A stretch of 64,000 nt of DNA from positions 23,036,912-23,100,911 of the forward strand of contig NC_092675.1 of assembly GCF_964355755.1 (NCBI RefSeq), in the 5' to 3' direction. Below are positions 12,490-57,818 of the stretch, piece after piece (position 1 is the first letter of the stretch; the number at the start of each line of letters is the position of its first letter). A program made the translations under genes and the position numbers. The stretch comes from Antedon mediterranea. Lineage: Eukaryota; Animalia; Echinodermata. The notes beneath the pieces are model-generated. The model was not told the DNA's origin and made no database searches. It worked only from the letters and a program-made list of their open reading frames with translations.

Positions 12490-12545
<56 letters not shown>

Positions 12546-14295
12546 CAATGATGTTGCGTAGCACTGTGTAAATTATATATAAATCATACTGTAAATTATA
12601 GAAACAGTTCGAATCCCGCCAGAGACAGGTTCGAATCCCGCCAGAGACATTTTTTCATACAACTAAAAAAAATACGGAACTTTCGCCAATGAGCTATGCT
12701 CGACGCGATTATGAGATCATGTTCCGAATATGAGCACTGTTTCTATAATTTACAGTATGATTTATATATAATTTACACAGTGCTACGCAACATCATTGAT
12801 TTACATATACACAATATTATTTAAAAAACCGTTGCGAATTAAAGTGGGAATTTATTCTGACTTGTTAAGCCTCCACTGATTGTGAGGGCGTTTGTTGTAT
12901 GAGAGAATGTATCTGGTGGGTGAAAATCTGTGATAATACCATACATGGCTCTGTGGTCTAGTGGTATGATACTCGCCCTGTAAGCGAGAGGTTGCAGGTT
13001 CGAATCCCGCCAGAGACATTTTTTCATACAACTAAAAAAATGATAAAGATGAGATATATATATACAAAATGATTCCGCCGATATCTAAACAAAATGTAAA
13101 TGACCATTACACGATTTAAATTATAAGTGTCAACAGTTGTAAGGAGAATAAATATAGTGATTTATAATATAAAATAATTATTATATTAGGCCTACAGAAA
13201 TCCCAAAGATTAGTCATAATAAATTTTATTTATCATAAGTCATATAGACTGATAATATTGCTCAAATATATTTGTTCTTAATTGTTAAAACGGTGAACAT
13301 ACTATGCAAGCACTATTATATCCCATTACCAAGGTAACGATAACAAGGGTCATGTTTCTTATTCCGTAACATTTTTCAAGCCCAAAGCTATACTAACTTC
13401 AGTAATACAGTAGTCAAGGTGACGAGCCCACCTAATATAAAAAGTAGTCTGCTTGCACCAAAATTAGATATTTCATATGTATTTGTATTGTCTTTATAGA
13501 GTTGTCAACGATTGGATCACATGTATCAACAGAAGAAACCAATACTTTACCTGAAAATGCTACAACTACTATAAATCCAACAACCAGGAAAACTTTGGCA
13601 ACGCTATCTAATACTCAAAACGCACCTTCCACTAATTCATACACAAGAGTAACCACAGCATCATATAGTACTGCCGATCTTACAAAACTAAACAGTGATA
13701 TTATAAAAACAAAAAGTTCTTCAACTAAGGAAACAACATTCCCAATTTCTGATCAAACATCTGTGGATTTAACATCTTCAAGTGGTTCCACTAAACCTTC
13801 TATTAATTCATATACAACAGTGAACACTCCGGCAACAGATACTACTACTCATTTTACGACAAACAATGAGGCAGAAACAACGGTAGCCGAAATTACTGTG
13901 ACACCCACAGGCAGTGTCTCAACTATGGAGGCACATTTGTCAAGTTCTGATAAAACAACAATGACCACTCCGGGAGCTGATACTACTACTACTACTACTA
14001 CTACTACTCTTACAGCAACAAACAATGAGGCAGAAACATCGGTAGCAGAAACAACTTTAACTACAAACAGTGTATCAACTATGGAGACACCTTTGTCAAG
14101 TCCTGATAAAACATCGGTGGATTCAACATCCTCAAGTGGATCTCCGGAAACAGATACTACTACTCATTCTACGACAAAAAATGGGGCAGAAACAACGGTA
14201 GCCAAAACAACTTTAACAACTACAAACAGTGCATCAACTATGGAGACACCTTTGTCAAGTTCTGATAAAACAACAATGACCACTCCGGGACCTGA

Positions 14296-14339
<44 letters not shown>

Positions 14340-14469
14340 TTACAGCAACAAACAATGAGGCAGAAACATCGGTAGCCGAAACAACTTTAAAAACTACAAA
14401 CAGTGCATCAACTATGGAGACACCTTTGTCAAATCCTGATAAAACAACAATGACCACTCCGGGAGCTGA

Positions 14470-14501
<32 letters not shown>

Positions 14502-14628
14502 TTACAGCAACAAACAATGAGGCAGAAACATCGGTAGCAGAAACAACTTTAACTACAAACAGTGTATCAACTATGGAGACACCTTTGTCAAGTCCTGATA
14601 AAACAACAATGACCACTCCGGGAGCTGA

Positions 14629-14669
<41 letters not shown>

Positions 14670-17224
14670 TTACAGCAACAAAGAATGAGGCAGAAACATC
14701 GGTAGCAGAAACAACTTTAACTACAAACAGTGCATCAACTATGGAGACACCTTTGTCAAGTCCTGATAAAACATCGGTAGATTCAACATCCTCAAGTGGC
14801 TCTCCGGAAACAGATACTACTACCCATTCTACGACAAAAAATGGGGCAGAAACAACGGTAGCCGAAACAACTTTAACAACTACAAACAGTGCATCAACTA
14901 TGGAGACACCTTTGTCAAGTTCTGATAAAACAACAATGACCACTCCGGGAGCTGATAGTACTACTACTACTACTCTTACAGCAACAAAAAATGAGACAGA
15001 AACATCGGTAGCCGAAACAACTTTAAAAACTACAAACAGTGCATCAACTATGGAGACACCTTTGTCAAGTCCTGATAAAACATCGGTAGATTCAACATCC
15101 TCAAGTGGATCTCCGGAAACAGATACTACTACTCATTCTACGACAAAAAATGGGGCAGCAACAACGGTAGCCGAAACAACTTTAACAACTACAAACAGTG
15201 CATCAACTATGGAGACACCTTTGTCAAGTTCTGATAAAACAACAATGACCACTCCGGGAGCTGATACTACTACTACTACTACTACTCTTACAGCAACAAA
15301 AAATGAGGCAGAAACATCGGGAGCCGAAACAACTTTAAAAACTACAAACAGTGCATCAACTATGGAGACACCTTTGTCAAGTCCTGATAAAACATCGGTA
15401 GATTCAACATCCTCAAGTGGCTCTCCTGAAACAGATACTACTACTCATTCTACGACAAACAATGAGGCAGAAACAACGGTATCCAAAATTACTGTGACAC
15501 CCACAGGCAGTGTCTCAACTATGGAGACACCTTTGTCGAGTACTGATAAAACATCGGTAGATTTAACATCCTCAAGTGGCTCTCCGGCGACAGATACTAC
15601 AACACATTCTACGACTAACAATGAGGCAGAAACAACGGTAGCCGAAACTATTGCAACACCCACAAACAGTGCATCAACTATGGAGACACATTTTTCAAGT
15701 TCTGATAAAACATCAGTGGATTTAACATCCTCAAGTGCCTCTACTCTATATTCTACTAATTCATATACAAAAATGACCACTCTGGCAGCTGATCCTACTA
15801 CTACTCATTCCACGACAAACAATGAGGCAGAAACAACGGTAGCCGAAATTACTGTGACACCAACAGACAATGTCTCAACTATGGAAACACCTTTGTCAAG
15901 TTCTGGTAAAACATCAGTGGATTTAACATCCTCAAGTGCCTCTACTCTATATTCTACAAATTCATATACAAAAATGAACACTCAGGTAGCTGATACTACA
16001 ACGACTCATTCCACGACAAACAATGAGGTAGGAACAACTGTAGCCGAAACCACTGTAACACCCACAAACAGTGTATCAACTATGGAGACGAATTTGTCAA
16101 GTTCTGATAAAACATCGGTGGATTTAACATCCACTCTGGCAGCTGGTACTACGACTATTACAACAACAAACAATGAGGCAGAAACATCGGTAGCCGAAAC
16201 CACTTTAACAACAAACAGTGTCTCAACACCTTTGTCAATGTCTGATAAAACATCCTCAAGTGGCTCTCCGGCGACAGATACTACAACACATTCTACAACA
16301 AACAATGAGGCAGAAACAACGGTAGCCGAAACTACTGCAACACCCACAAACAGTGCATCAACTATGGAGACACATTTTTCAAGTTCTGATAAAACATCAG
16401 TGGATTTAACATCCTCAAGTGCCTCTACTCTATATTCTACTAATTCATATACAAAAATGACCACTCTGGCAGCTGATCCTACTACTACTCATTCCACGAC
16501 AAACAATGAGGCAGAAACAACGGTAGCCGAAATTACTGTGACACCAACAGACAATGTCTCAACTATGGAGACACCTTTGTCAAGTTCTGGTAAAACATCA
16601 GTGGATTTAACATCCTCAAGTGCCTCTACTCTATATTCTACAAATTCATATACAAAAATGATCACTCAGGTAGCTGATACTACAACGACTCATTCCACGA
16701 CAAACAATGAGGTAGAAACAACTGTAGCCGAAACCACTGTAACACCCACAAACAGTGTATCAACTATGGAGACGAATTTGTCAAGTTCTGATAAAACATC
16801 GGTGGATTTAACATCCACTCTGGCAGCTGGTACTACGACTATTACAACAACAAACAATGAGGCAGAAACATCGGTAGCCGAAACCACTTTAACAACAAAC
16901 AGTGTCTCAACACCTTTGTCAATGTCTGATAAAACATCAGTGGATTTTACAACATCAAGTCATGAGACAGAAACTTTGGTAGCCCGGTCGACTTTAACAA
17001 ATACAAACAGTATCTCAACTATGCTAACACCTTTGTCAAGTTCTGGTAAAACATCGGTAGATTTAACAACCTCAAGTGGTTCTACTTCACTTTCTACTAA
17101 TCCAACAACAACGATGACCATAACAAATTTAACAACGAATGGTTTTAATACAGAAAAGGTTACTGATTTTTATACAGAGTTAGAAACAATTTTAGCAGAT
17201 GACATTACTTCTCTTACAACATAA
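11824..17224 (+). CDS. Type II single-pass membrane mucin-like Thr/Ser-rich glycoprotein (~1,340 aa; exons 11824-12121 and 13500-17224)
   Basis: Exon 1 encodes a ~65-aa hydrophilic N-terminus and a hydrophobic helix (LVIAIVIGSIAFLVLTVILCVVLI), ending at a phase-1 G|gtaagt donor. The acceptor ctttatag|AG at 13500 puts it in frame with the 1240-aa T/S-rich repeat ORF. Confidence 0.75.
12377..12540 (+). mobile_element. 3' part of the tRNA(ATC)-containing element with (TA)n tail
   Basis: tctcggttggggcgactttttctcattctcacagatttcctcatc...aatttcagtat matches 57941-58025 and is followed by a long (TA)n. Confidence 0.75.
12541..12803. repeat. Perfect 67-bp inverted repeat (12541-12607 / 12737-12803) enclosing a 5'-truncated tRNA(TGT)-family element
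   Basis: taaatcaatgatgttgcgtagcac...tatagaaacag is the exact reverse complement of ctgtttctata...gtgctacgcaacatcattgattta. gttcgaatcccgccagagaca is duplicated inside. Confidence 0.9.
12947..13018 (+). mobile_element. tRNA-like moiety of a SINE-type element (Pro-like body, TGT anticodon); probably not a functional tRNA
   Basis: 72-nt cloverleaf with A box (TGGTCTAGTGG), B box (GGTTCGAATCC) and anticodon stem ctcgc/gcgag around cc-TGT-aa. It has mismatches in the acceptor and T stems, and the same downstream body is repeated at 12650 and 28995. Confidence 0.7.
13820..17000 (+). repeat. Coding minisatellite of the mucin exon with (ACT)n poly-Thr tracts and a 684-bp higher-order duplication
   Basis: Recurrent NNEAETxVAETT...TNSxSTMETPLSSxDKT units. 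Sequence at 15661 recurs at 16345. Confidence 0.9.
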
Positions 17225-25300: not shown

Positions 25301-28180
25301 AGATAGTTTAAGTTGACATCATCTACAAAATTTCCTCTTTACTTTACCAATTAGTACATCATGTGCTTCTGCACCAACTTACCTCCAGGATACCATTTCA
25401 TGTTACCATACAAAAGGCCTTGGTTTTGAAATTGCACCATTAATTTGAAATCGGTGTAATTTATTCTTGTTAATTTTAGCACTGTATTAATTGTGTTTTA
25501 TAAATGATGTTTTGTGATATTAATTTATTGATTTGTTAATATTGTATCACTAATTGTTTTTAATGCTTACAGATTGTATCCTATCGTCACTTCTTGGTTC
25601 CTACTAGAGAGCATTTGCATATGCAGCATGTACAACTTAGACATATTGGACAAGACATGACAACTTTACCAAACTCGCCAGCTGCTAAAAAGCTCACCTC
25701 ACACCCATTTAAATCGGCAGGACTTCCACCTTCACCTTCAAAAGGTTTTGTACTCTGGTTAAATTACTCTGTATTTAAAAACTCTCCCAAAATCATACTC
25801 TTCCAAAACAGTTTCAAAATCTTTGATGCTGGAAATTCCTCCAAATGGAAACTTTCCCAAAAAATTAGATACTTTTTAACTTTGTCCAAAACGGAACACT
25901 TGGAAATTCCTCCAAAATGGGATACTAATGCATACTGGAAACTCCCCACAAATGGGCCAATGACACACTTCTCCCAAAAGGAAACACTTGGCTGCTACTA
26001 AACATGAAAGTTATATATGATTTTACAAAAGATACAAATTGGATAATAAATTAGATATTAATAAATTATGAATATGCTTATTAATTAATTTTACTTGCAG
26101 TTGTTGATGTAGAGAGTATATTTAATGAGAATCTTTTAACTGGAGGACATCTTTATGATCCAAATATATTGGATGATCCAGAACTTAGTGCTGGGAAGCA
26201 CAAAAAAGTGCTAACATTCCCTTCATATATGGTAGGTACAGTCAAAGAACTTATAACACAAGAATCTCCTGTTCTTCAATTTGCATTCAAAACACAGTAT
26301 CGGAAGTACAGGGTTAAAAGGTCAAACTGGGCGACGCCATTTCACAGCATGGAGCAGCGCCCCCTCCAAACTAGGTAGTCAATTACTCTACCCCCTAGAG
26401 TATTAGCAGATCCCCTCTATGATTTTGACTTTCTAATTTGATGCGGGCGCCCTACTCCTCAGTCAATTACTCTATCCCCCCTAGAGCATTAGCAGATCCC
26501 CTCTATGATTTTGACTTTCTAATTTGATGCGGGCGCCCTACTCCATGGCTCACAATGGCGCCACCCATAGCTCTATTCTATCCCACAATGCCTTTCGAAA
26601 TTGTTACGCGCTTCGGACGAACAGGAGATTCTTGTGTTATAAGTTCTTTGGTACAGTATTAAGCTCAATACCGATGTGCCAATCGAAATAATCATTTATT
26701 TTTAAAATATATTTCGAAGAAGATAAACAGAAAATATGGAGTTCATCATAAGCTCTGCTTATATTTATCCGATGATTTTAGAAACTTCATTTTTTTTTTG
26801 CTTGATGAAAAATCAGTTATGTTGAACCTGCTACCTTAAAAAAATGTGATTTGTATTCAGTGATATATGTTGATTCTGATGTGATATGCTATAATAGTAT
26901 ATAAATATAAATATTATTATTGATTACTACTTTGAAGGTATCTATAATTGAACATGCGAAACCTTCAGAACTGAAAAAGGATTTGAACGAACAGTTTGCA
27001 GAACGTTTTCCAAGAATAAATTTAACACTAAGTAAACTAAGAAGGTACCTTTTATTTTATTATAACGTTGTTTGACCACCCAATACATTTATAGTTATTT
27101 TTGGTGCAATGTGTTCACAATGTTGTTGACATTTGTAGTTATTTTTGGTGCAATGTGTTCACAATGTTGTTGATATAGTAGATAGCAAGTTGTTTGATTT
27201 TAAGTATGAATAGTTATTTTAAAAACTAAAAATATAAATAAAACAAATATTTTATTACATAATAAAAATAACGTTTTTCTTCAGTCTTCTACTTCAGATC
27301 ATTCTGAATTGTTCACATTGATTGATTTTATGTTATTTATTTTTGTATGTAAGTGTGTAGGTATAATAATTTTACTTGGTATTGTTATAGGTAATTATAG
27401 TTAATTTCATTATCATATAGCATAAAGAAAGACATGTGGAAAATCTGTATGGATTGTGACGTTGAACCAGCAACTTTAGCACAAGCATATGCCTACTATG
27501 AAAAATTAGTCTTGAATGGAAAAATACACAAACAGAATAGAAAGTTATGTGCAGGTAAAATATTATTAAATCAATGATAATTTTTTTGTTTTCCAATCTA
27601 TTTTCCCCAAACTCATCACCATGGCCATAGTCTGTTTGAATGTTTATAATGTTTTTTTCAATTCAAAAATCAGTATTTCTGGAACTCATTGCCACACCAC
27701 ATTGAAACTAGATTTTGAGGAAACAAAAGGACATTCCCAGAAAAAAAGGAATATTATGGCTAAAGGAATATTAGTTCCTGAAGGCCTATTGCTCACACTT
27801 AAGTACAAATTATCAAATAACTATGTTAAAATAGATTTGATGACGATATGATCAAAAGTGGCAAGATTTGCCTTTTTAAATTTCAGCAGAAGATTGAATG
27901 GTACATTATGTTCATAGTATATACAATCATTTATTATTATTTCTTAAATTATAATTGTATGCCTCTTATAGGTGCATCATTACTATTATCTGCCAAACTA
28001 AATGATGTGAAGCGATGTGATTTAGATGATGTTATCAAAGAAATTGAAGAACAATTCCGTGTCAGTCGAAAAGAACTATTTTCATATGAATTCCCGGTGT
28101 TAGTTGCATTAGAATTCTCATTACACCTTGCAGAATTTGAAGTCTTACCTCACTATAAAAGAATTATACAACTTACTTAA
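22315..28180 (+). CDS. CABLES: CDK5 and ABL1 enzyme substrate (CABLES1/2 ortholog); exons 22315-22883, 24660-24743, 25108-25216, 25573-25744, 26101-26231, 26938-27044, 27421-27554, 27972-28180
   Basis: N-terminal [16 protein letters not shown], then [54 protein letters not shown] and [32 protein letters not shown]. The cyclin-box-like C-terminus reads [32 protein letters not shown]...[13 protein letters not shown]...VLPHY. All junctions are GT-AG and phase-consistent. Confidence 0.95.
23000..23159. mobile_element. MITE with ~20-bp terminal inverted repeats (Tourist/PIF-like, tentative)
   Basis: agggtctttcacacctgttc ... gaacaggtgtgaaagacact, in CABLES intron 1. Confidence 0.65.
26243..26650 (+). 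mobile_element. MITE with 32-bp perfect TIRs and 7-bp TSD (P-element-like non-autonomous)
   Basis: caaagaacttataacacaagaatctcctgttc / gaacaggagattcttgtgttataagttctttg, with GTACAGT duplicated on both sides (26236-26242, 26651-26657) and an internal ~84-bp tandem duplication. Confidence 0.85.
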
Positions 28181-28900
28181 CCATTGAAAAGTTATAAATA
28201 TATTACCAAATTGTCTAAAGAGAATTTTGCGTTTAAAATGTCTATTGTTTTTTAAACTGTATAAAGACCAATGAACTGCATGATTTTTTTGCATGGAACA
28301 CCAACCAACTTATTCATGATCTACTAAAAAGACTTGGATGTGATGCTTAATGATATTTTATACATAATAAAGGCCTGTTTATAGATGATAACAAATCACT
28401 TTAAATGGATGATTATTATGCGCTTCAAGAATTTTCGATTTTGAATGATTGACTACTCTAATTAACACTCGGATGTGTTTATAATGCTGTAACTGTTGTG
28501 GTGATCGTCATCATTATTATTGTAACCATACATATTACAACATCTTGTGCATGTACTCCATATGTGGGCCATATCCCATATAAACCCATTACATTTATCT
28601 GATAATGTGATACAATATTTAGGCTATACTTTGATAAATTCCAAAAATGATGTTGACCATGTTTATTGTACAGTCTAGAGAAATACATTTATATAAAAAA
28701 ATTATATTCACAAATTTTTAGGTCTATGCTTTTTATTTTTGAAATTGAGTTTATTATTCAGGCACATAGGTCTGAAAGTCATCCAAGTGGTATTATATAA
28801 TAAGGTGAGATGTTTTACGAGGGTCGTTGGTTAGAAGATGAGCGTCATGTTTTACTATTGTCTGTTTAGGGGACTTTCAAAATATATTCCATAGCCCGCG

Positions 28901-28931
<31 letters not shown>

Positions 28932-28935
<4 letters not shown>

Positions 28936-29120
28936 AGTGGTATGATACTCGCCCTGTAAGCGAGAGGTTGCAGGTTCGAATCCAGCCAGAGGCATTTTTT
29001 CATACAACTAAAAAATATGGAACTTTCGCCAATGAGCTATGCTCGACGCGATTATGAGATCATGTTCCGAATATGAGCACTGTTTCTATAATTTACAGTA
29101 TGATTTATATATATATATAT
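28932..29120 (+). mobile_element. 5'-truncated tRNA(TGT)-family element between (TA)n tracts
   Basis: gtctagtggtatgatactcgccctgtaagcgagagg...ctgtttctataatttacagtatgattta(TA)n matches 12957-13035 and 12650-12770. Confidence 0.8.
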
Positions 29121-29126
29121 TTATAT

Positions 29127-29448
29127 GGTGGTGGTGGTTATTTATAACCACCATTTAAGCTGTTTTTTAGTCTCATTCCAAAATTGTTTATATCTCTACC
29201 AAGCTACCTTCTTTTTCTTTTATTCCTGTCCACCCAGGCAGCACTTGCCAGCTTTATACTATGACGTTATCCAAATTCTTTCACTTGCACTGATGAAGGG
29301 CTAGTGTTGCCCGAAAGCTCTGCTAACTTTTCTGGCTGTTTACTTTATCGTTTTGATTTAACTTTTCGCTTTTTATTTTTGTATCTCCATTGAGATCCAG
29401 CCACTGATACCCACAGCATTGTCATTTTTTTCAGTAATTTGCCTTTGG

Positions 29449-29483
<35 letters not shown>
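29127..29483 (+). mobile_element. (TA)n-tailed non-autonomous element resembling a Penelope-like pseudo-LTR, carrying a hammerhead ribozyme
   Basis: Family copies at 55117-55287, 57565-57812, 57813-57863 (-), 58095-58130 (-), 60831-60966 (-) and a fragment at ~12321-12349 (-). Copies that retain the 3' end finish in ..aatttgcctttggattta(TA)n or a close variant. Confidence 0.7.
29285..29326 (+). ncRNA. Minimal type I hammerhead ribozyme motif
   Basis: ttGCA-CTGATGA-A-GGGC(tagtgtt)GCCC-GAA-AGCT-C^TGCtaa. It has the complete catalytic core, a 4-bp stem II, a palindromic AGCU stem III and stem I GCA/TGC. Predicted cleavage is after C29320. Confidence 0.75.
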
Positions 29484-29489
<6 letters not shown>

Positions 29490-30175
29490 CTGTACCTCCT
29501 TCATGGTAAAATGTATTATGAAATATGATGAATGTGCAGTGCACATTGCTTGTTGATATAAAATACATGCCTAAGCTATCCTTATTTTCCGAAGCACCTT
29601 GGAGCAATAATTGAACAACTGCGAGGAATTGCACTGAAATAAACATATGAAAAATTGAAAAAGTAGCCTTCCCATGAAAAAGTATGTTAATCAACCGATA
29701 TACTTGCCACTATGATTCATTCTGTAACACAAACTGAGAAAAGTTTTATGGATAGGAATGTTTAGAAAAGACAATGTAACATGTTTTCTACAGTAGGACT
29801 ACATTTGCAATATAATATAGGATATCAAACTGTTTTTTTTAACGTTTTATTTTTTCTTCGTCATGTTTTTTTTTTTGGTTTTTACAATTCATATAGTTTA
29901 TTTTATATAATTATATTTGTTGCACTGTTATACATAATTCCCTTATGTAAACTTATATAGATACAGAGAGCGTTTCCACTATATTATACATATCCTTCAT
30001 GTACAATGATTGAATTCTTAATTGCACTGGAATCACAATTCATTATGTATAAATTACTTTTGTATTAATATGTATTTTATGTTTAAAAAATACAAACCGT
30101 TTTTAGTGGTCTTAGGCTTATTTCTTCAGTTACAGTATCATATTAATTGTTAGTTTACTGGTTCAGTCAAGTAGT

Positions 30176-33100
30176 CTAGATGAATAGTAAATCTTGTGAA
30201 CACGAGCACTTTTCGGTCTGTTGTAGCTCAAGTTGAACTGTGCTGTTGTCACTGCATCTAAAATGTTTCAGTGACATACTGGTCTCTGATGGTTTACACA
30301 CCCCAGTTACACTTATTCTTTGGAGACGCTGTTCAATAGATATCACTTTAGTGTATGAAGGGCAGCATCCGGTACATTCAGTTGTCTCGATAACACCAGT
30401 GCATGTATGTCCAGAGTCTATTGTAATACACAGGTTCTTCTTTATTTGTTTGGTAGAACATGCTGTGGTTGGCTCTTCAATAGGGTTAATTTCTGTTGTA
30501 ACTTCTATTCTATCTACGTCAATGGAATGTGTTTCTTGAACAGGTGTCACTGAAATAATAATGTTTATAACTTGTTGTAAAGTTAGGTTTGTGCATTGAA
30601 GACATTCTGTTCTTCACTTAAGTTGGTAATTAAGTACAACTGGAAAATAAACATTTGAAACCTAAAAGTTGCTTTAATTATACTAAAATTATAATTTAAA
30701 AATGTACCTAATTCCTTGGCAACAGTTGTGAAGGAGTACGTAAATAACTCTGTCTCTGTTGATTTTTCGCAAGCTGCTATAAATAACTCGGAGCAGACAC
30801 GATCCTCCCATTTTCCAGTGGTTGATGTCAGAACAGCACAATTGGACGTACCTGGCTTTCCTAATTCCCAATCTGAAACATAGATAGTGAATTCAGAGTA
30901 CAGATAATAATATCCATGTACGGCCTATATAGGTGTGAAATATGAAAAAGAATATTGAGAATGTGGGTTTTAGAACCTAATCAGTAATAAAGCGTCTTTT
31001 TTAAGAAAGTAATAGGCCTAAGGCCGAAATGGAAATTATTTATGCCACTTGCATGCACAGTTTAATATTCAAATATTATTAAACAAACAACATACTTGTA
31101 AACCCAGATTCGTCTTGTCCACTACTCCATATTCCATCACCATTAACAGATAACCCAATCCACATAGCATCATTATACTTTCGACGTTGTGAAATCTTTG
31201 ATCTTAAAAACTCATTCTCTTCAAGATTATCAATTGTTGTCATCACTGCGTTTCTTTCTGAACAGAAAGAACTAGCTGACGAAAAACTCAACCTTCTTAA
31301 TGAAAACTGGTAACACTTTTTGTTGAAATAGACCCAGTTCTCAGGACACAATTCTAAAATAAAAAAAAGGTTTGTATCAGTATTTTATTTAACATTAAGC
31401 TAATGTATTATTATTGTTTAAATAATATTAAACCTATAATGTTGGAATTGGTATTATTTTTCAATATAAAATGATTACCAGAATGAAAACCCACCTGCAT
31501 AGTTTGTTTCTGAATAGCTTTCCGTAACTACCTGAGGTTTCTCAGTTGATTTGGATGACGAAATGTCAGCTTTGTTTTCAACATGAAATAAATCGGTACT
31601 TGTATCTCCATTGTCTTCTGTAGTCACGGGAGATTTGACTACTCCTTGGTCAACTTCATTAGGTGTCTGTGTTTCTCCATTTTTTGTTGTTTTTTCTGTG
31701 TCTGTTTCATCAACAAAAACGATTTCTGTAGTTTTATCAACTTGTTCAACCATATCAGGAGCTTCCGTCCCAACTTTGTTCTCACCTTCTCCTGACTCTG
31801 TATCATCTGTAACCGTTTCAATTTCTATCTCTGTGTCTACAACGACCTCAGGAAGAGCTTCAGTAGTTTCGTCTGACTTTTGGTCAACTTCATCAGGTGT
31901 CGGTGTTTCTTCTATAATATCATCACCTCCTGTTTCAACCACAATCTTTACCTGTGGCTCTTCCTCAGTAGTAGTAGTAGTAGTCTCTGTTTCTTTTTCA
32001 GGTTCTTCAACACCATTGGAAACAATTTCTTCATTAGTTTCGTCTGTGTCTGTTTCACCAGCAACATCAACAGTTTCCATAGTTTTGTCAGATATATCTT
32101 CAATAATCTCTGGACTCTCTGTTCCAAACATTTCCTCTGTTTCTTTTTTGTCATCAGTAAGCTCAGCTGTTGTCATTTCTGTTTCACCTTCAGCCTCAGC
32201 TTCTGTTTCTTCTATTGTTTTTCCAGTAGTCTCTTTATCTACTGTTTCATCCGTCACTGTTTCTTTTTCAATTGCCCCAGGACTCTCTGTTCCAACTGTT
32301 TCCTCTGTGTCTTTCTCATCATCAGTAGGCTCAGTCACAACATCCTCTTCCATCTCTTTGTTATCCATTGTTTCTGTTTCTTCTTCATCATCAACTTCTG
32401 TTGTAGTTGTTTCTTCTATTGTATCTTCAGTAGTCTCCTTTTCTACTGTTTCATCCGTCACTGTTTCTTTTTCGATTGCCTCAGGACTTTCTGTTTGAAC
32501 TGCTTCCTCTGTGTCTTTCTCATCATCAGTAGGCTCAGTCACAACATCCTCTCCCATCTCTTTCTTATCCATTATTTCTGTTTCTTCTTCATCATCAACT
32601 TCTGTTGTAGTTGTTTCTTCTATTGTATCTTCAGTAGTCTCCTTTTCTACTATTTCATCCGTCACTGTTTCTTTTTCAATTGCCTCAGGACTTTCTGTTG
32701 TAACTGTTTCCTCTGTGTCTTTTTTGTCATCAGTAGACTCAGTCACAACATCCTCTCCCATCTCGTTCTCATCCATTGTTTCTGTTTCTTCTTCAGCCTC
32801 AGCTTCAGTTGTTTCTTCTATTTCCTCAGTATCTTCAGGTGTGTCTTTTTCTACTATTTCATCCGTCACTGTTTCTTTTTCCATTGCCTCAGGACTGTCT
32901 GTTTGAACTGCTTCCTCTGTGTCTTTCTTATCATCAGTAGGCTCAGTCACAACATCCTCTCCTGTCTCTTTCTCATCCATTGTTACTTCTGTTTCCTCTT
33001 TAGCCTCAGGCTCTGTTGTAGTTGTATCTTCTATTTTCTCTCCAGTATCTTCAGTAGTCTCTTTTTCTACTGTTCCATCCGTCACTGTTTCTTTTTCAAT

Positions 33101-36100
33101 TGCCCCAGGACTGTCTGTTTGAACTGCTTCATCTGTGTCTTTCTCATCATCAGTAGGCTCAGTCACAACATCCTCTCCCATCTCTTTCTTATCCATTATT
33201 TCTGTTTCTTCTTCAGCCTCAGCTTCTGTTGTAGTTGTTTCTTCTTCAGTATCTTCAGGTGTGTCTTTTTCTACTATTTCATCCGTCACTGTTTCTTTTT
33301 CAATTGCCTCAGGACTTTCTGTTTGAACTGCTTCCTCTGTGTCTTTCTCATCATCAGTAGGCTCAGTCACAACATTCTCTTCCATCTCTTTGTTATCCAT
33401 TGTTTCTGTTTCTTCTTCAGCCTCAGCTTCTGTTGTAGTTGTTTCTTCTATTGTATCTTCAGTAGTCTCCTTTTCTACTATTTCATCCGTCACTGTTTCT
33501 TTTTCAATTGCCTCAGGACTTTCTGTTTGAACTGCTTCCTCTGTGTCTTTCTCATCATCAGTAGGCTCAGTCACAACATCCTCTTCCATCTCTTTGTTAT
33601 CCATTGTTTCTGTTTCTTCTTCATCATCAACTTCAGTTGTAGTTGTTTCTTCTATTGTATCTTCAGTAGTCTCCTTTTCTACTGTTTCATCTGTCACTGT
33701 TTCTTTTTCAATTGCCTCAGGACTTTCTGTTTGAACTGCTTCCTCTGTGTTTTTCTCATCATCAGTAGGCTCAGTCACAACATCCTCTTCCATCTCTTTG
33801 TTATCCATTGTTTCTGTTTCTTCTTCATCATCAGCTTCAGTTGTAGTTGTTTCTTCTATTGTATCTTCAGTAGTCTCCTTTTCTACTGTTTCATCCGTCA
33901 CTGTTTCTTTTTCCATTGCCTCAGGACTTTCTGTTTGAACTGCTTCCTCTGTGTTTTTCTCATCATCAGTAGGCTCAGTCACAACATCCTCTCCCATCTC
34001 TTTCTTATCCATTATTTCTGTTTCTTTTTCAGCCTCAGCTTCTGTTGTAGTTGTTTCTTCTTCAGTATCTTCAGGTGTGTCTTTTTCTACTATTTCATCC
34101 GTCCCTGTTTCTTTTTCAATTGCCTCAGGACTTTCTGTTTGAACTGCTTCCTCTGTGTCTTTCTCATCATCAGTAGGCTCAGTCACAACATCCTCTTCCA
34201 TCTCTTTGTTATCCATTGTTTCTGTTTCTTCTTCATCATCAACTTCTGTTGTAGTTGTTTCTTCTATTGTATCTTCAGTAGTCTCCTTTTCTACTGTTTC
34301 ATCCGTCACTGTTTCTTTTTCAATTGCCTCAGGACTTTCTGTTTGAACTGCTTCCTCTGTGTCTTTCTCATCATCAGTAGGCTCAGTCACAACATCCTCT
34401 TCCATCTCTTTGTTATCCATTGTTTCTGTTTCTTCTTCAGCCTCAGCTTCTGTTGTAGTTGTTTCTTCTATTGTATCTTCAGGTGTCTCTTTTTCTACTG
34501 TTTCATCTGTCACTGTTTCTTTTTCAATTGCTTCAGGACTCTCTGTTTGAACTGTTTCCTCTGTGTCTTTCTGTTCATCAGTAGGCTCAGTCACAACAGC
34601 CTCTCCCGTCCTTGTCTCATCTATTGTTACTGTATCATCCTTATCTGTCCCGGAAACTTCTGTTTCAGTGACTTCTTCACTTTCAAATTCCACAACTGAT
34701 TTGAAAGATGATTCTTCGTAAACAACATTTGTTGATGTTTTGCATATAACACGATGCACTTTTTTACACGATTCAGCCATCCACTTTCCTGTGGACGATA
34801 TAATTACTGCACAAGCTCTACCATCATCTCCAACTGAATCATCTACATTTATATTGGATGGTTCTCCATCCTTCCAATCTGTGAAATTAGATATATACTA
34901 CAAATTAGATAACATTTATTATTAGAAATTACGAATTCACTTGCTAATCGTCATATTCGATTATGAATTTTAGAATGAGGTTTATGAGATATCTGTTTTG
35001 ATGTATTATTGTATTGTAAAACCTTAAATCCGAGTTGCATGTTGAAATAAGCTGATTCCACTAACACTCATTATTTAATAAAAAGTATTTGACTTTCGAA
35101 ATTTCATTTATAAAACCAAACAAGATTGTCAAAAACATCGTCATAACTAAAGAAAACCATAATTGTGTGAATGTATTCTGTAAGGGAAAAGGAAGTTGCT
35201 TCATTTTATTTTTTATTTTCAAATAAAAAGAAGAAATTATTTACTACACAAATACTACAATATAGATAAAACTAGAAATTGCAAAGTGCAAGTGAGTGAA
35301 GCAGATATAACATTACATAGTTTTGATGAGTCAGGGCCCTCCTAAAGACAGAAACTGAATGTCAATATTAGAACACTTCTCATTGTACAATCTCTGCCTG
35401 ATAAATGTATTTCACCTGTAAACATCAACTCTGCATAGGTGTCTTATACCAATGTTTTGACAAGCAATGACTTTTATGAGAGGTCAAATTGCTGTGCAGA
35501 ATATGAATAGTTGACATAAAGCAATAAACATATTACACATAGAGCGTGTATTTGTATATGTTAGCTGCTTGTTTCCAAAATGTTATTCGTTAACATTATC
35601 GTATTCATTATTGGTGAAACATTTTCATATAATTCCAAGACAAATACCCAAAATTCTATTTTAAATTAAAATTTACTTACTTTCAAATTGAACATCTTCA
35701 CCGGATTGCCACCTCCATTCCATTCCATATTCGCGTGTATAACCTATCCATGCACGGTTATTGTACCACTTTTTCTTTAACAGATTCTCTTTAACAAATT
35801 CATTTTCATCTTTACTAGACATATCAGCTAGATAAGAATTTTGTTCTCGACAATATTTGATAGCAGCAAAAACAGTAAAGCGTTTATTTGTGAATTTATA
35901 GCAGCTTCCTTGATATTGCAGCCATCCTACATTACACAAACCTGCATGTAAAAGAATTATTATAATTAAAAATTAAAGACAAGATAACATTTAATAACAT
36001 TTGCTTAACCTAGATAAAGAACATTATTTACTCAATATTAGTGTATAGTGTACATTTTTCAGTTTAAAAATATGAATACATTATGTTTCTATTTTTACTT

Positions 36101-39100
36101 ACTGCATCCATTAATAGTTTCTTTATCATCATCTACAGTTCCGTCAATCTCATCTTCAGTTTCAGTTATTTCTTCTACCTGGTTTTCAACTGTAGTTGTC
36201 TGATCAGCAGTAACCTCTGTGTCAGTTTTTTCATCAATATCATTAGTTACGGTTCCTTCTGCATCTATCTCATCTCCAGTTGTTTTGTCATCAGTAGTCT
36301 CCGTGTCTACGTTGTCATCCATAACTGTTTCTTCTTCAGCAGTAGTTTCTGTGTCTTTCTCAGAATCATCAACGCCATTGGAAACAATTACTTCTGTTGT
36401 TTCATCTGTGTCTGTTTCATAAAAAATATTAATGGTTTCTGTAGTTTTGAAAGTTTCTTCTTCCACTGCCTCAGGACTTTCTGTTTCAGTTGGTTCCTCT
36501 TCATCAGTAGGCTCAATCACAACATCATCACTTGTCTTAATCTCATCTGTTGTCACTTCTGCTTTTGTTTCTGTTGTTTCCTCAATTTCTTTTAGAGTAC
36601 CTGCAGTAGTCTTTGTGTCTACTGTATAAACCGTAACTGTTTCTATCGTAGGCTCATTCCCAACAACCTCTTCCGTGTCTGCCCCATCTGTTACTTCTGT
36701 TTCTGTTTCATCACCAACCTTAGCTTTTGTTTCGGTTGTTTCTCCAGTTTCTTTTCCTGGTTCTTCAGTAGATTCTGTGTCTACTGAGTCAACAATTAAT
36801 GTTTCTTCTTCAGTAGTTGTAGGACTCTCTGTTTCATCTGTTTCCTCTGTTTCTTTCTCTTCGTCAGTAGGCCCAATCACAACAACATCTCCCTTATCAG
36901 TCCCACCTGTTGTTACTTCTGTTTCATCATCAACCTCAGCTTCTGTTTCAGTAGTTTCTTCAGTTTCTTTTCCGGGTTCTTCAGTAGATTCTGTGTCTGC
37001 TGTGTCAACAATTAATGTTTCTTCTTCAGTAGTTGTAGGACTCTCTGTTTCATCTGTTTTCTCTGTTTCTTTCTCTTCGTCAGTAGACTCAATCACATCT
37101 CCCTTATCTGTCCCACCTGTTGTTACTTCTGTTTCATCATCAACCTCAACTACTGTTTCAGTAGTTTCTTCAGTTTCTTTTCCGGGTTCTTCAGTAGATT
37201 CTGTGTCTGCTGTGTCAACAATTAATGTTTCTTCTTCAGTAGTTGTAGGAATCTCTGTTTCATCTATTACCTCTGTTTCTTTCTCTTCGTCAGTAGGATC
37301 AATCGCAACAACATCTCCCTTATCAGTTCCATCTGTTGTTACTTCTGTTTCATCACCAACGTCAGCTTCTGTTTCGGTTGTGTCTTCAGTTTTTTTTCCG
37401 GGTTCTTCAGTAGATTCTTCGTCAGAGGGCTCAATCACAACAACATCTCCCTTATCTGTCCCACCTGTTGTTACTTCTGTTTTATCATCAACGTCAGCTT
37501 CTGTTTCAGTAGTTTCTTCAGTTGCCTTTCCGGCATCTTCAATAGTTTCTGTGTCTACTGTTTCAACCGGTGTGTCTTCAGTTTCTTTTCCGGGTTCTTC
37601 AGTAGATTCTGTGTCTGCTGTGTCAACAACTAATGTTTCTCCTTCAATAGTTGTACGACTGTCTGTTTCCTCTGTTTCTTTATCTTCGTCAGTAGGCTCA
37701 ATCACAACAACATCTCCCTTATCAGTCCCACCTGTTGTTACTTCAGTTTCATCATCAACCTTAGCTTCTGTTTCAGTAGTTTCTTCAGTTGCCTTTCCGG
37801 CATCTTCAGTAGTTTCCGTGTCTACTGTCTCAACCGGAATTAATGTTTCTTCTTCAGTAGTTGTAGGACTCACTGTTTCTTTCTCTTCGTCAGTAGGCTC
37901 AATCACAACAACATCTCCCGTATCAGTCCCACCTGTTGTTACTTTGGTTTCATCATCAACCTCAGCTTTTGTTTCAGTAGTTTCTTCAGTTTCTTTTTCC
38001 GGTTCTTCAGTAGATTCTGTGTCTGCTGTGTCAACAATTAATGTTTCTTCTTCAGTATTTTTTGGACTCTCTGTTTCATCTATTACCTCTGTTTCTTTCT
38101 CTTCGTCAGTAGGTTCAATCACATCTACATCTTCCTTATCAGTCCCACCTGTTGTTACTTCTGTTTCATCACCAACCTCAACTACTGTTTCAGTAGTTTC
38201 TTCAGTTTCTTTTCCGGGTTCTTCAGTAGATTCTCTGTCTGCTGTGTCAACAATTAATGTTTCTTCTTCAGTTGTTGTAGGAGTCTCTGTTTCATCTGTT
38301 TCCTCTGTTTCTTTCTTTTCGTCAGTAGGCTCAATCACAACAACATCTCCCTTATCAGTCCCACCTGTTGTTACTTCAGTTTCATCACCAACGTCAGTTT
38401 CTGTTTCGCTTGTGTCTTCAGTTTCTTTTCTGGGTTCTTCAGTAGATTCTGTGTCTGCTGTGTCAACAATTAATATTTCTTCTTCAGTTGTTGTAGGAGT
38501 CTCTGTTTCATCTGTTTCCTCTGTTTCTTTCTCTTCATCAGTAGGCTCAATCACAACAACATCTCCCGTATCAGTCCCATCTGTTGTTACTTCAGTTTCA
38601 TCACCAACGTCAGCTTCTGTTTCGGTTGTGTCTTCAGTTTCTTTTCCGGGTTCTTTGGTAGATTCTGTGTCAGCTGTGTCAACAATTAATGTTTCTTCTT
38701 CAGTTGTTGTAGGACTCTCTGTTTCTTTCTCTTCGTCAGTAGGCTCAATCACAACAATATCTCCCTTATCAGTCCCACCTGTTGTTACTTCTGTTTCATC
38801 ACCAACGTCAGCTTCTGTTTCGGTTGTGTCTTCAGTTTCTTTTCCGGGTTCTTCAGTAAATTCTGTTTCTGCTATTTCAACAATTAATGTTTCTGTGTCT
38901 GCTGTGTCAACAATTAATGTTTCTTCTTCAGTTGTTGTAGGAGTCTCTGTTTCCTCTGTTTCCTCTGTTTCTTTCTCTTCGTCAGTAGGCTCAATCACAA
39001 CATCTCCCGTATCAGTCCCATCTGTTGTTACTTCAGTTTCATCACCAACGTCAGCTTCTGTTTCGGTTGTGTCTTCAGTTTTTTTTTCGGGTTCTTTGGT

Positions 39101-42100
39101 AGATTCTGTGTCTGCTGTGTCAACAATTAATGTTTCTTCTTCTGTTGTTGTAGGAGTCTCTGTTTCATCTGTTTCCTCAGTTTCTTTCTCTTCGTCAATA
39201 GGTTCAATCACATCTACATCTTCCTTATCAGTCCCACCTGTTGTTACTTCTGTTTCATCACCAACCTCAGCTTCTGTTTCAGTAGTTTCTTCAGTTTCTT
39301 TTCCTGGTTCTTCAGTAGATTCTGTGTCTGCTGTGTCAACAATTAATGTTTCTTCTTCAGTAGTTGTAGGAATCTCTGTTTCATCTATTACCTCTGTTTC
39401 TTTCTCTTCGTCAATAGGCTCAATCACAACAACATCTCCCGTATCAGTCCCATCTGTTGTTACTTCTGTTTCATCACCAACGTCAGCTTCTGTTTCGGCG
39501 GTGTCTTCAGTTTCTTTTCCGGGTTCTTCAGTAGATTCTGTGTCTACTGTGTCAACAATTAATGTTTCTTCTTCAGTAGTTGTAGGAATCTCTGTTTCAT
39601 CTATTACCTCTGTTTCTTTTTCTTCGTCAGTAGGCTCAATCACAACAACATCTCCCGTATCAGTCCCATCTGTTGTTACTTCTGTTTCATCACCAACGTC
39701 AGCTTCTGTTTCGGCTGTGTCTTCAGTTTCTTTTCCGGGTTCTTCAGTAGATTCTGTGTCTGCTGTGTCAACAATTAATGTTTCTTCTTCAGTAGTTGTA
39801 GGACTCTCTGTTTCAACTCTTTCCTCTGTTTCTTTCTCTTTTTCAGTAGGCTCAATCACAACAACATCTCCCTTATCAGTCCCACCAGTTGTTACTTCTG
39901 TTTCATCATCAACCTCAGCTTCTGTTTCGGTAGTTTCTTCAGTTTCTTTTCCGGATTCTTCAGTAGATTCTGTGTCTGCTGTGTCAACAATTAATGTTTC
40001 TTCTTCAGTTGTTGTAGGACTCTCTGTTTCTTTCTCGTCGTCAGTAGGCTCAATCAGAACAATATCTCCCTTATCAGTCCCACCTGTTGTTACTTCTGTT
40101 TCATCATCAACCTCAGCTTCTGTTTCGGTTGTGTCTTCAGTTTCTTTTCCGGGTTCTTCAGTAGATTCTGTGTCAACAATTAATGTTTCTTCTTCAGTTG
40201 TTGTAGGACTCTCTGTTTCTTTCTCTTCGGCAGTGGGTTCAATCACAACAACATCTCCCTTATCTGTCCCACCTGTTTCTACTTCGGTTTCATCATCAAC
40301 CTCAACTACTGTTTCAGTTGTTTCTTCAGTTTCTTTTCCGGGTTCTTCAGTAAACTCTGTGTCTGCTGTGTCAACAATTAATGTTTTTTCTTCAGTAGTT
40401 GTAGGAATCTCTGTTTCATCTATTACCTCTGTTTCTTTCTCTTCGTCAGTAGGTTCAATCACAACAACATCTCCCTTATCTGTCCCACCTGTTGTTACTT
40501 CTATTTCATCACTAACGTCAGCTTCTGTTTCGGTTGTGTCTTCAGTTTCTTTTCCGGATTCTTTGGTAGATTCTGTGTCTGCTGTGTCAACAATTAATGT
40601 TTCTTCTTCAGTTGTTGTAGGAGTCTCTGTTTCATCTGTTTCCTCTGTTTCTTTCTCTTCCTCAGTAGGCTCAATCACAACATCTCCCGTATCAGTCCCA
40701 TCTGTTGTTACTTCAGTTTCATCACCAACGTCAGCTTCTGTTTCGGTTGTGTCTTCAGTTTTTTTTTCGGGTTCTTTGGTAGATTCTGTGTCTGCTGTGT
40801 CAACAATTAATGTTTCTTCTTCTGTTGTTGTAGGAGTCTCTGTTTCATCTGTTTCCTCAGTTTCTTTCTCTTCGTCAATAGGTTCAATCACATCTACATC
40901 TTCCTTATCAGTCCCACCTGTTGTTACTTCTGTTTCATCATCAACCTCAGCTTCTGTTTCGGTAGTTTCTTCAGTTTCTTTTCCTGGTTCTTCAGTAGAT
41001 TCTGTGTCTACTGTGTCAACAATTAATGTTTCTTCTTCAGTAGTTGTAGGAATCTCTGTTTCATCTATTACCTCTGTTTCTTTCTCTTCGTCAATAGGCT
41101 CAATCACAACAACATCTCCCGTATCAGTCCCATCTGTTGTTACTTCTGTTTCATCACCAACGTCAGCTTCTGTTTCGGCGGTGTCTTCAGTTTCTTTTCC
41201 GGGTTCTTCAGTAGATTCTGTGTCTACTGTGTCAACAATTAATGTTTCTTCTTCAGTAGTTGTAGGAATCTCTGTTTCATCTATTACCTCTGTTTCTTTT
41301 TCTTCGTCAGTAGGCTCAATCACAACAACATCTCCCGTATCAGTCCCATCTGTTGTTACTTCTGTTTCATCACCAACGTCAGCTTCTGTTTCGGCTGTGT
41401 CTTCAGTTTCTTTTCCGGGTTCTTCAGTAGATTCTGTGTCTGCTGTGTCAACAATTAATGTTTCTTCTTCAGTAGTTGTAGGACTCTCTGTTTCAACTCT
41501 TTCCTCTGTTTCTTTCTCTTTTTCAGTAGGCTCAATCACAACAACATCTCCCTTATCAGTCCCACCAGTTGTTACTTCTGTTTCATCATCAACCTTAGCT
41601 TCTGTTTCGGTAGTTTCTTCAGTTTCTTTTCCGGGTTCTTCAGTAGATTCTGTGTCTGCTGTGTCAACAATTAATGTTTCTTCTTCAGTTGTTGTAGGAC
41701 TCTCTGTTTCTTTCTCGTCGTCAGTAGGCTCAATCAGAACAATATCTCCCTTATCAGTCCCACCTGTTGTTACTTCTGTTTCATCATCAACCTCAGCTTC
41801 TGTTTCGGTTGTGTCTTCAGTTTCTTTTCCGGGTTCTTCAGTAGATTCTGTGTCAACAATTAATGTTTCTTCTTCAGTTGTTGTAGGACTCTCTGTTTCT
41901 TTCTCTTCGGCAGTGGGCTCAATCACAACAACATCTCCCTTATCTGTCCCACCTGTTTCTACTTCGGTTTCATCATCAACCTCAACTACTGTTTCAGTTG
42001 TTTCTTCAGTTTCTTTTCCGGGTTCTTCAGTAAACTCTGTGTCTGCTGTGTCAACAATTAATGTTTTTTCTTTAGTAGTTGTAGGACTCTCTTTTTCATC

Positions 42101-45100
42101 TGTTTCCTCTGTTTCATCTGTTTTCTCCGTTTTTTTCTCTTCGTCAGTAGGTTCAATCACAACAACGTCTCCCTTATCAGTCCCACCTGTTGTTACTTCT
42201 GTTTCATCATCAACCTCAGCTTCTTTCTCAGTAGTTTCTTCAGTTTCTTTTCCGGGTTCTTCAGTAGATTCTGTGTCTACTGTGTCAACAATTAATGTTT
42301 CTTCTTCAGTAGTTGTAGGAATCTCTGTTTCATCTATTACCTCTGTTTCTTTCTCTTCGTCAGTAGGCTCAATCACAACAACATCTCCCGTATCAGTCCC
42401 ATCTGTTGTTACTTCTGTTTCATCACCAACGTCAGCGTCTGTTTCGGCGGTGTCTTCAGTTTCTTTTCCGGGTTCTTCAGTAGATTCTGTGTCTACTGTG
42501 TCAACAATTAATGTTTCTTCTTCAGTAGTTGTAGGAATCTCTGTTTCATCTATTACCTCTGTTTCTTTTTCTTCGTCAGTAGGCTCAATCACAACAACAT
42601 CTCCCGTATCAGTCCCATCTGTTGTTACTTCTGTTTCATCACCAACGTCAGCTTCTGTTTCGGCTGTGTCTTCAGTTTCTTTTCCGGGTTCTTCAGTAGA
42701 TTCTGTGTCTGCTGTGTCAACAATTAATGTTTCTTCTTCAGTAGTTGTAGGACTCTCTGTTTCAACTCTTTCCTCTGTTTCTTTCTCTTTTTCAGTAGGC
42801 TCAATCACAACAACATCTCCCTTATCAGTCCCACCAGTTGTTACTTCTGTTTCATCATCAACCTCAGCTTCTGTTTCGGTAGTTTCTTCAGTTTCTTTTC
42901 CGGGTTCTTCAGTAGATTCTGTGTCTGCTGTGTCAACAATTAATGTTTCTTCTTCAGTTGTTGTAGGACTCTCTGTTTCTTTCTCGTCGTCAGTAGGCTC
43001 AATCAGAACAATATCTCCCTTATCAGTCCCACCTGTTGTTACTTCTGTTTCATCATCAACCTCAGCTTCTGTTTCGGTTGTGTCTTCAGTTTCTTTTCCG
43101 GGTTCTTCAGTAGATTCTGTGTCAACAATTAATGTTTCTTCTTCAGTTGTTGTAGGACTCTCTGTTTCTTTCTCTTCGGCAGTGGGCTCAATCACAACAA
43201 CATCTCCCTTATCTGTCCCACCTGTTTCTACTTCGGTTTCATCATCAACCTCAACTACTGTTTCAGTTGTTTCTTCAGTTTCTTTTCCGGGTTCTTCAGT
43301 AAACTCTGTGTCTGCTGTGTCAACAATTAATGTTTTTTCTTCAGTAGTTGTAGGAATCTCTGTTTCATCTGTTTTCTCCGTTTCTTTCTCTTCGTCAGTA
43401 GGTTCAATCACAACAACATCTCCCTTATCAGTCCCACCTGTTGTTACTTCTGTTTCATCATCAACCTCAGCTTCTGTCTCAGTAGTTTCTTCAGTTTCTT
43501 TTCCGGGTTCTTCAGTAGATCCTGTGTCTGCTGTGTCAACCGTTAATGTTTCTTCTTCAGTAGTTGTAGGACTCTCTGTTTCATCTGTTTTCTCTCTTTC
43601 TTTCTCTTCGTCAGTAGGCTCAATCACATCTACATCTCCCGTATCAGTCCCATCTGTTGTTACTTCTGTTTCATCATCAACCTCAACTACTGTTTCAGTA
43701 GTTTCTTCACTTTCTTTTCCGGGTTCTTCAGTAGATTCTGTGTCTACTGAGTCAACAATTAATGTTTCTTCTTCAGTAGTTGTAGGAGTCTCTGTTATAT
43801 CTGTTTCCTCTGTTTCTTTCTCTTCATCAGTAGGTTCAACAACATCTCCAGTATCTGTCCCATCTGTTGTTAATTCTGGTTCTTCACCAACGTCAGCTTC
43901 TGTTTTGGTTGTGTCTTCAGTTTCTTTTCCGGGCTCTTCAGTAGATTCTTCGTCAGTGGGCTCAATCACAACAACATCTCTCTCATCAGTCCCACCTGTT
44001 GTAACTTCTGTTTCATCATCAACCTCAAGTACTGTTTCAGTAGTTTCTTCAGTTTCTTTTCCGGGTTCTTCAGTAGATTCTGTGTCTGCTGTTTCAACAA
44101 TTAATGTTTCTTCTTCAGTAGTTGTAGGACTCTCTGTTTCATCTGTTTCCTCTGTTTCTTTATCTTCGTCTGTAGGCTCAATCACAGCCACATCTCCCTC
44201 ATCAGTCCCACCTGTTGTTACTTCTGTTTCATCATCAACCTCAACTACTGTTTCAGTTGTTTCTTCAGTTTCTTTTCCGGGTTCTTCAGTAGATTCTGTG
44301 TCTGCTGTGTCAACAATTATTGTTTCTTCTTCAGTAGTTGTAGGAATCTCTGTTTCATCTATTACCTCTGTTTCTTTCTCTTCGTCAGTAGGATCAATCG
44401 CAACAACATCTCCCTTATCTGACCCACCTGTTGTTATTTCTGGTTCTTCACCAACCTCAGCTTCTGTTTTGGTTATTTCTTTTCCCGGATCTTCAGTAGT
44501 TTCCGTGTTTACTGTGTCATCCTTAGCTTCTGTTGGTTCAACCTCGATAACATTTTTATTTTCAGTAACATCCTCAGGGACAGCTTCAGTTGTAACCGTA
44601 CATTCTTCAGGTAATGGTAGCGTAGGATCTGGTATTTAATAGAGTTGCATATTGTTTATACATTGTTATATCGTGTATTTTATGGAATTTAATTTTAACA
44701 ACGTATTATTAACTTGAAATTTGAATGAATGATATTATTCTAACGGCTTTGATAAAGTCCCTTTTTAAAATGTTAATGATATAGAAAGGATTAAGACCTT
44801 GTTTGAAAGACAGAGAAAATATTTCTTTTTTTATAGGCTACAACACCCCTGATTGAATCATTGAATTAGATAATCTTGTAATTTTATTCCAGCTGGGCCA
44901 TTTTTAAATGTTTTATCGAATAATGACTGATCTCCTGAAAATACTAATTTATTTTTTTAAACTGTTTTTGTCACATAAAATATATTCACTTTTGTCAAAA
45001 AGTAGATCGAGAAACAGTTTTAAATTTTACAGTATTTAGAATATACTAACCAAATTCGCACAGTATCTTTATGTGTCTTTCACATGGTATTGCAAACCAC

Positions 45101-57776: not shown

Positions 57777-57818
<42 letters not shown>

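Follow-up and report, generated by a model that had tools for sequence, protein, structure and literature searches.

A minimal hammerhead motif in an abundant (TA)n-associated repeat of Antedon mediterranea, probably the end of a Penelope-like element

A minimal type I hammerhead motif occupies positions 29287-29323 (+) of the window, the 64,000-nt stretch of Antedon mediterranea contig NC_092675.1 analyzed here. The repeat that carries it is probably the terminal repeat (pLTR, 3' end) of an endonuclease-bearing (EN+) Penelope-like element (PLE), present as thousands of truncated, non-coding copies at (TA)n, and cleavage by the hammerhead of these pLTR stumps is predicted to require two copies paired through AGCU. 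Under this reading, a GIY-YIG nuclease would nick (TA)n, and the PLE reverse transcriptase would copy the RNA from its 3' end and either halt early or fold back. Inserted copies would then decay, first at the CpG in C11.1-G12, while the double hammerhead would be formed only by source elements with two same-strand pLTRs. Our best guess for the clade is Neptune, because minimal hammerheads (PMC4209133) and microsatellite bias (PMC8557442) have both been reported for it. Coordinates are collected in Table 1, and the family was surveyed in contigs of five public runs, X2-X5 being one sample and X1 another study.

Table 1. Coordinates, within the window, of the hammerhead motif, its repeat family and neighboring features
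Feature	Position	Strand	Remark
Last CABLES-like coding exon and 3' part under a spliced X1 contig	27972-28639	+	Stop 28178-28180
Family A tRNA-headed repeat flanked by two TA runs, immediately 5' of the hammerhead copy	28932-29105	+	
Longest family copy in the window, 325 bp	29127-29451	+	BLAST to other copies
22-nt palindrome at 5' end of that copy	29132-29153	.	Self-inverted BLAST match, 91%
TCACT just 5' of stem I	29281-29285	+	Start of many long old copies
Stem I, 5' strand GCA	29287-89	+	
Hammerhead core CUGAUGA	29290-96	+	
Extra unpaired A before helix II	29297	+	
Stem II GGGC/GCCC, 4 bp, 7-nt loop	29298-301/29309-312	+	G10.1-C11.1 = G29298-C29312
GAA, then palindromic AGCU at 15.2-16.2	AGCU 29316-19	+	
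C17, predicted cut after it	C29320	+	
Stem I, 3' strand UGC (3-bp helix I)	29321-23	+	
Deepest-covered 3' segment	29404-29434	+	Reads like branch point, pyrimidine tract and CAG acceptor (motif scan)
(TA)16 at 3' end, likely insertion target	29452-29483	.	
Older copy, 87%, starting at stem I 5' edge in AT-rich DNA	55117-55295	+	BLAST
5'-truncated copy, 95%, core CCGAUGA (U4 to C)	57565-57809	+	BLAST
Inverted 49-bp family 3' end, joined to 5' side of a family B repeat	57816-57864	-	
43-bp hammerhead fragment between TA runs	58130-58088	-	BLAST
Copy starting in loop II, GAAA altered	60965-60830	-	BLAST
Family B tRNA-headed repeat ending in (TA)n	57862-58064	+	ARAGORN tRNA-Asp 57883-57954
Chimera: family B (61134-60963) to hammerhead family 3' part (60965-60831)		-	3-nt overlap, ends in (TA)5
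Family A copy, 5'-truncated, after an inverted copy of its own 3' end (12608-12543)	~12535-12810		
TA run, inverted piece, 5'-truncated family B copy, (TA)25	12312-12492	.	

The letters at 29287-29323 are those on which an earlier note on this DNA had based its hammerhead assignment, and a type I descriptor returns them as the only strict match on both strands of the 64-kb window. Block shuffles gave an equally strict match in 1 of 200 cases (a loose match in 29 of 200), and when one core mismatch is allowed, the extra matches in the window are only the sister copies at 55124 and 57616. The hammerhead search that the note had proposed as a check recovered the motif with the descriptor but not with Rfam, which gave no hammerhead match for the whole window at E<=5 or for 29100-29500 at E<=10. 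Folding of the bare 37-mer is not above that of shuffles (z -0.93). Across four sequence contexts, the pairing probability of stem I is at most 0.07 and that of stem II 0.00-0.57, and both stems fall to 0.00 in the long context of 28640-29600. Under an energy model that holds no tertiary terms, the double-hammerhead dimer (-17.1 kcal/mol) is no more stable than a pair of monomers that form stems I and II (2 x -8.9). Helix III can form only between two molecules, pairing through AGCU. The Rfam miss and the poor fold are expected of so small a structure, yet they count against the hammerhead reading.

Together with the lack of covariation described below, these results are what would be anticipated if the repeat were the tail of a TA-targeting LINE or of some other repeat and its likeness to a hammerhead were due to chance. 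We regard this as extremely improbable: the shuffles seldom yield a motif of this stringency, variation within the motif is low, and the motif fits the published consensus in full (PMC4209133). The two overlapping frames at 6686-7518 (+) were considered as a tail donor and rejected, as only short chance words are common to them and the family, and their 3' region has no tail in common with the repeats considered here. These frames resemble the C-terminal part of a LINE reverse transcriptase.

Feature by feature, the motif agrees with the minimal hammerheads of metazoan PLEs, as the earlier note had proposed. According to PMC4209133, this type is defined by the core, an extra nucleotide between 9 and 10.1, the pair G10.1-C11.1, a palindromic 15.2-16.2 and a short helix I, with a consensus (Fig S3) that runs U-rich, NNN, CUGANGAH, G...C, GAAAN, palindrome, NUH, NNN. 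The Antedon motif shares the core, extra nucleotide, G10.1-C11.1, a palindromic 15.2-16.2 that has no loop 3, 3-bp helix I and U-rich 5' flank, and like most of those motifs it is single and dispersed; its helix II lies at the short end of the published range, and its middle pair is G-C, whereas most of the listed PLE motifs have C-G and one turtle row has G-C (PMC4209133). The known motifs sit in PLEs, whereas a search for PLE protein motifs in six frames of the window found none. The words of the motif had no relevant match in supplement file 2 of PMC4209133. In the same source, a lone minimal hammerhead from Schistosoma gave no cleavage, and dimers and trimers cleaved at low levels. The role of PLE hammerheads in vivo is described as still open in PMC8557442.

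All four further copies named in the earlier note lie where it placed them (BLAST), and its statement that only the 29.3-kb copy has an intact core holds for the copies in the window. Two more pieces of the family's 3' end had been overlooked: one, at 57864-57816, is inverted, and the other, at ~12353-12312, has diverged. Six-frame translation of 29127-29451 gave no long open frame, and no start codon or reading-frame start follows the motif in this interval. The copy at 55117 has the core CUGAUUA (G8 to U) and a stem I of 5 bp, while the fragment at 58130-58088 starts inside the core and is without C3 and the stem I 5' strand.

The family is also as abundant as had been supposed, with contig depth over the motif ~10^4 times that of the flanks: the summed values are ~24,000 (X2), 11,000 (X3) and 42,000 (X4) times flank, which, since summed contig depth is not copy number, we read only as 'very abundant'. 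Family contigs cover 29140-29436 throughout and are 3'-biased, with a peak at 29390-29419 and a steep drop toward the 5' end; in each of four runs, relative to the depth at 29310-19, the values are 0.03-0.23 for 29240-49 and 0.003-0.014 for 29140-49. The segment 29404-29434 resembles a 3' splice site. We also considered a U12-type branch site upstream of stem I and rejected it, since it would lie too near the presumed acceptor. In some genomic copies, the last 45-57 nt (29377-29434) are duplicated in tandem.

Conservation of the core in the family consensus had been set by the earlier note as a refutation test; the core is kept, and the motif varies less than the DNA downstream of it. Positions with a variant in at least 2% number 3 of 37 in the motif versus 20 of 82 downstream (Fisher p 0.045), 1 of 35 versus 18 of 78 without CpG (p 0.006) and 1 of 35 versus 12 of 58 without CpG and the T tract (p 0.027). 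The contigs behind these counts come from one sample, with three runs, and from one further run; the positions are non-independent, and rare variants are lost in contigs. In four runs, the largest core variants are G12 to A (0.5-9.5%, at a CpG) and G8 to A (0.1-2.0%). The CpG at 29312-13 accounts, through both of its letters, for two of the three motif variants, which suggests decay after insertion, and within the stems only the CpG change C29312T reaches 2%. The note had looked to covariation in the two stems as a check; none appeared in the contigs, where no pair varied on both sides, and invariant pairs are uninformative. Stem pairs are likewise invariant in 3 of 3 full window copies, three near-identical rows that carry no covariation.

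The way in which copies sit in the genome supports PLE-like insertion, with 5' truncation, a fixed 3' end, palindromic or inverted ends and a bias for TA. The 29.3-kb copy ends with GGATT followed by (TA)16, 161 nt from core start to 3' TA end, and the window copies have five distinct start points, while four of the copies extend to the 3' end. Of the 13 TA runs with at least five units, 10 lie within 25 nt of the hammerhead family or of two tRNA-headed families, and these three families with their margins make up 4% of the window. Hammerhead copies are without a one-sided tail of 30-40 bp, a 40-nt extension occurs on family A only, and target-site duplications are unreadable in TA. According to PMC8557442 and PMC3846280, insertions of EN+ PLEs are likewise often truncated at the 5' end, may carry palindromes there as well as inverted pieces, show microhomology at their junctions and favor microsatellites, here (TA)n; the word TCACT is shared as well. 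Unlike the Pen2a pLTRs, the repeat has no ORF start inside it (PMC3846280), and its copy level is far above that of rotifer PLE families (PMC3846280, PMC8557442).

Other PLE clades offer partial likenesses. Hydra-clade elements share the preference for (TA)n and a hammerhead ~90-200 nt from the 3' end (PMC8557442 files S1, S2), but a helix III of 3-4 bp with a loop is part of every Hydra hammerhead listed there (PMC8557442), and none exists here, which makes this clade unlikely. The Naiad 'HHR_core' class resembles the family in its (TA)n bias and 16-nt core spacer; Naiads, however, have no descriptor-fitting hammerhead and an N-terminal endonuclease, whereas stems I and II are present here (PMC8557442). 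The words of the motif had no match in the Naiad, Chlamys and Hydra consensus files among the supplements of PMC8557442, and in metagenome contigs the hammerhead pattern and the 3'-end pattern each gave 0 matches.

Alternatively, and as the other option raised in the earlier note, the repeat could be a non-LTR retrozyme, in which neighboring hammerheads in the transcript of a tandem repeat cut it into units that give monomers and circles. The size and make-up of the family (170-325 bp, non-coding, GC-poor, with a type I hammerhead) fit such elements, which are likewise related to pLTRs (PMC7229834, bioRxiv 10.64898/2026.07.22.740005). That preprint derives retrozymes from pLTRs, reports dispersed monomers and accepts minimal motifs in tandem units, with one of nine dimers cleaved, and tandem joins through the TA end could be hidden here because TA repeats are skipped in contig mapping. 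The window nevertheless holds no tandem array of the family within its 64 kb, the two nearest same-strand copies are 2.5 kb apart and both have core changes, and the sole go-back joints, among 15 of the 41 joints, are 45-57-nt duplications of the 3' segment. Furthermore, PMC7229834 gives retrozymes head-to-tail arrays and canonical hammerheads with a 6-bp helix I and loop contacts, and assigns minimal ones, such as that found here, to PLEs. We therefore consider the retrozyme option unlikely.

Many long old copies begin 5' of the point where cleavage would place their 5' end. Among 32 listed long contig pieces, 15 start at 29281-29284 and none at 29321; loose ends before 29281 occur in 32 contigs of X4 and 31 of X5, with mixed AT-rich letters, and the window's older copy (55117) starts at the equivalent of 29283. 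Of 839 loose-end rows, the 24 listed hold no cluster of contig ends at the cut site, and depth shows no step up at 29321. These starts raise the possibility of a self-standing ~170-bp non-autonomous element with an initiator 5' of the ribozyme, copied in trans by a PLE, which is a variant of the PLE-end reading and not its opposite. The start cluster, the loose ends and the 55117 start all support so short an element, as does TCACT at its beginning, since the same word is called initiator-like in a rotifer pLTR (PMC3846280) and could serve here as a promoter. An internal promoter has been shown in the Penelope pLTR (PMC2377424). We nonetheless find this variant doubtful: family sequence reaches upstream as far as 29140 or farther; the pieces listed come from old, single-copy loci, many of which recur between runs of the same sample, and divergence below 80% may be all that hides their upstream part; and the initiator pattern has eight matches in 325 nt. 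An older subfamily with a diverged upstream part remains as the alternative for the starts at 29281-84. In either reading, the copies that begin there came from RNA still holding the whole ribozyme.

The position of the motif also invites a reading in terms of the gene upstream, which we take to be CABLES-like (from an Atlas lead at 0.83 and a Pfam Cyclin_N match at E 0.004, neither of which reaches a firm threshold). One X1 contig joins the last three exons of this gene across GT-AG introns and reaches 28639. The motif lies on the sense strand, 1107 nt past the stop, in agreement with the ~1.1 kb put forward earlier; it has the sole intact core in the window, and downstream of 28366 the + strand has no canonical AATAAA before 29638, which is past the element. 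Co-option of the ribozyme in the 3'UTR, where it would cut or destabilize the mRNA, would be consistent with this arrangement. Upstream of the motif, however, are the variant poly(A) signals TGTA (28667), AATACA (28682) and TATAAA (28692), followed by U-rich DNA, so that 28667-28697, ~580 nt 5' of the motif, may act as a variant poly(A) site. In a long transcript of 28640-29600, no folding of the motif is predicted, and the uncleaved lone Schistosoma hammerhead (PMC4209133) likewise speaks against co-option. Even with read-through, a lone minimal motif would be expected to cut poorly, and since the intact core is the family majority, no local selection is needed to explain it. We therefore consider co-option very unlikely.

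X1, which we guessed to be RNA, is one study represented by contigs only and was not counted as evidence on the 3'UTR. It has no cover at 28640-28859 or 29520-29739, and no listed piece bridges CABLES to the element. Family depth in X1 was rejected as a measure of expression, as this run also holds an intronic contig (depth 6.4). Another X1 contig covers 29905 onward, beside a minus-strand AATAAA at 29902 that is likely the end of a facing lectin-like gene. Small allelic differences between runs, including 3-, 6- and 8-nt indels, occur at 27623-28533, in the last CABLES intron and the 3' region.

Several other features of the window were recorded. Very long Thr/Ser- or Glu/Thr-rich tandem-repeat frames with units of ~160-216 bp extend over 13448-17224 (+), 30176-44635 (-) and 58745-60265 (-), and the minus-strand repeat frames with C-type lectin exons at 30583-31384 look like mucin-like lectin genes. 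A 470-bp duplicate (45301-45768 and 61615-62080, 92%) holds an apparent C-type-lectin-like exon on the minus strand. The repeats at 45969-46415 and 62110-62571 are 72% alike and have a tRNA-like stretch at the end, near 46320 and 62475; their downstream part is reminiscent of a V-domain SINE. A 372-bp repeat (26242-26662 and 47522-47905, 99%, opposite orientation), one copy of which lies in a CABLES intron, has two internal 86-bp units and short inverted ends. Inverted 270-bp arms (62570-62833 and 63679-63948, 83%) stand ~850 bp apart, with a further palindromic stretch beside them at 63550-63695, and the whole (62570-63948) is likely a non-autonomous DNA transposon.

Two tRNA-headed families also end in TA runs, as the hammerhead family does. 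Family A is also abundant, with depth at 28932-29105 ~2,400-3,600 times flank (X2-X4). ARAGORN calls its full head (12946-13019, in a copy spanning 12947-13049) tRNA-Thr, but to us it resembles tRNA-Pro more than Thr. Both the 12.6-12.8-kb copy and the inverted piece before it have the 40-nt extension that is absent at the 28.9-kb copy. The 12.6-12.8-kb copy also has a 21-bp internal duplication. Further family B intervals are 60963-61193, 61288-61585 and 63950-64000; in two family B copies, the ~80 bp upstream of the head holds the opposite-strand 5' half of another tRNA-like sequence, near 61160-61195 and 61510-61545. The inverted piece at 12.3 kb consists of family B sequence and a tail like the hammerhead family 3' end (a 47-column match). 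The arm at 57864-57816 could reflect a template switch, but it has a minor variant in common with the neighboring copy, which makes local duplication by fold-back at the TA run equally likely. Joints that single contigs show from family A to the hammerhead family, 28983 to 29293 (X2, X3) and 29081 to 29174 (X1), were discarded for their short sides and undefined middles.

Families A and B may be SINEs mobilized by a PLE, given the shared TA targets, the fold-backs and one chimera. When the last 35 nt were compared with the hammerhead family tail, however, only one of five tails was above shuffles (p 0.009) and the other four were not; local duplication may explain the 57.8-kb inverted arm, such clusters could also arise by nested insertion at a shared TA target, and the tRNA-headed repeats might themselves be termini of a different PLE. 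The comparison with a LINE partner covered the one LINE fragment in the window. A broader version, which we hold only tentatively and at less than an even chance, is that one TA-targeting PLE machinery moves its own ends and two unrelated SINE families, switching between RNAs, with most templates uncut. RNA would then start at the ribozyme 5' edge, and the hammerhead would be a promoter or boundary mark and not the maker of the template 5' end.

SINEs are generally taught as parasites of LINEs. Our search of the open-licence literature found no report of PLE-driven SINEs, and the word 'Penelope' does not occur in the accessible part of a paper on bivalve SINE partners (PMC11481361). PMC6685494 mentions short non-autonomous Penelope elements without detail, and the ability of pLTRs to mobilize other sequence in trans is shown in PMC3846280.

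As such, the motif is a further example of a class that was described in 2014. What the family adds is the combination of great abundance, a kept core and starts that lie 5' of the ribozyme, which offers a direct test of whether cleavage ever defines the RNA that is copied. If the tRNA-headed repeats are indeed carried by a Penelope enzyme, they would add a class of SINE partner.
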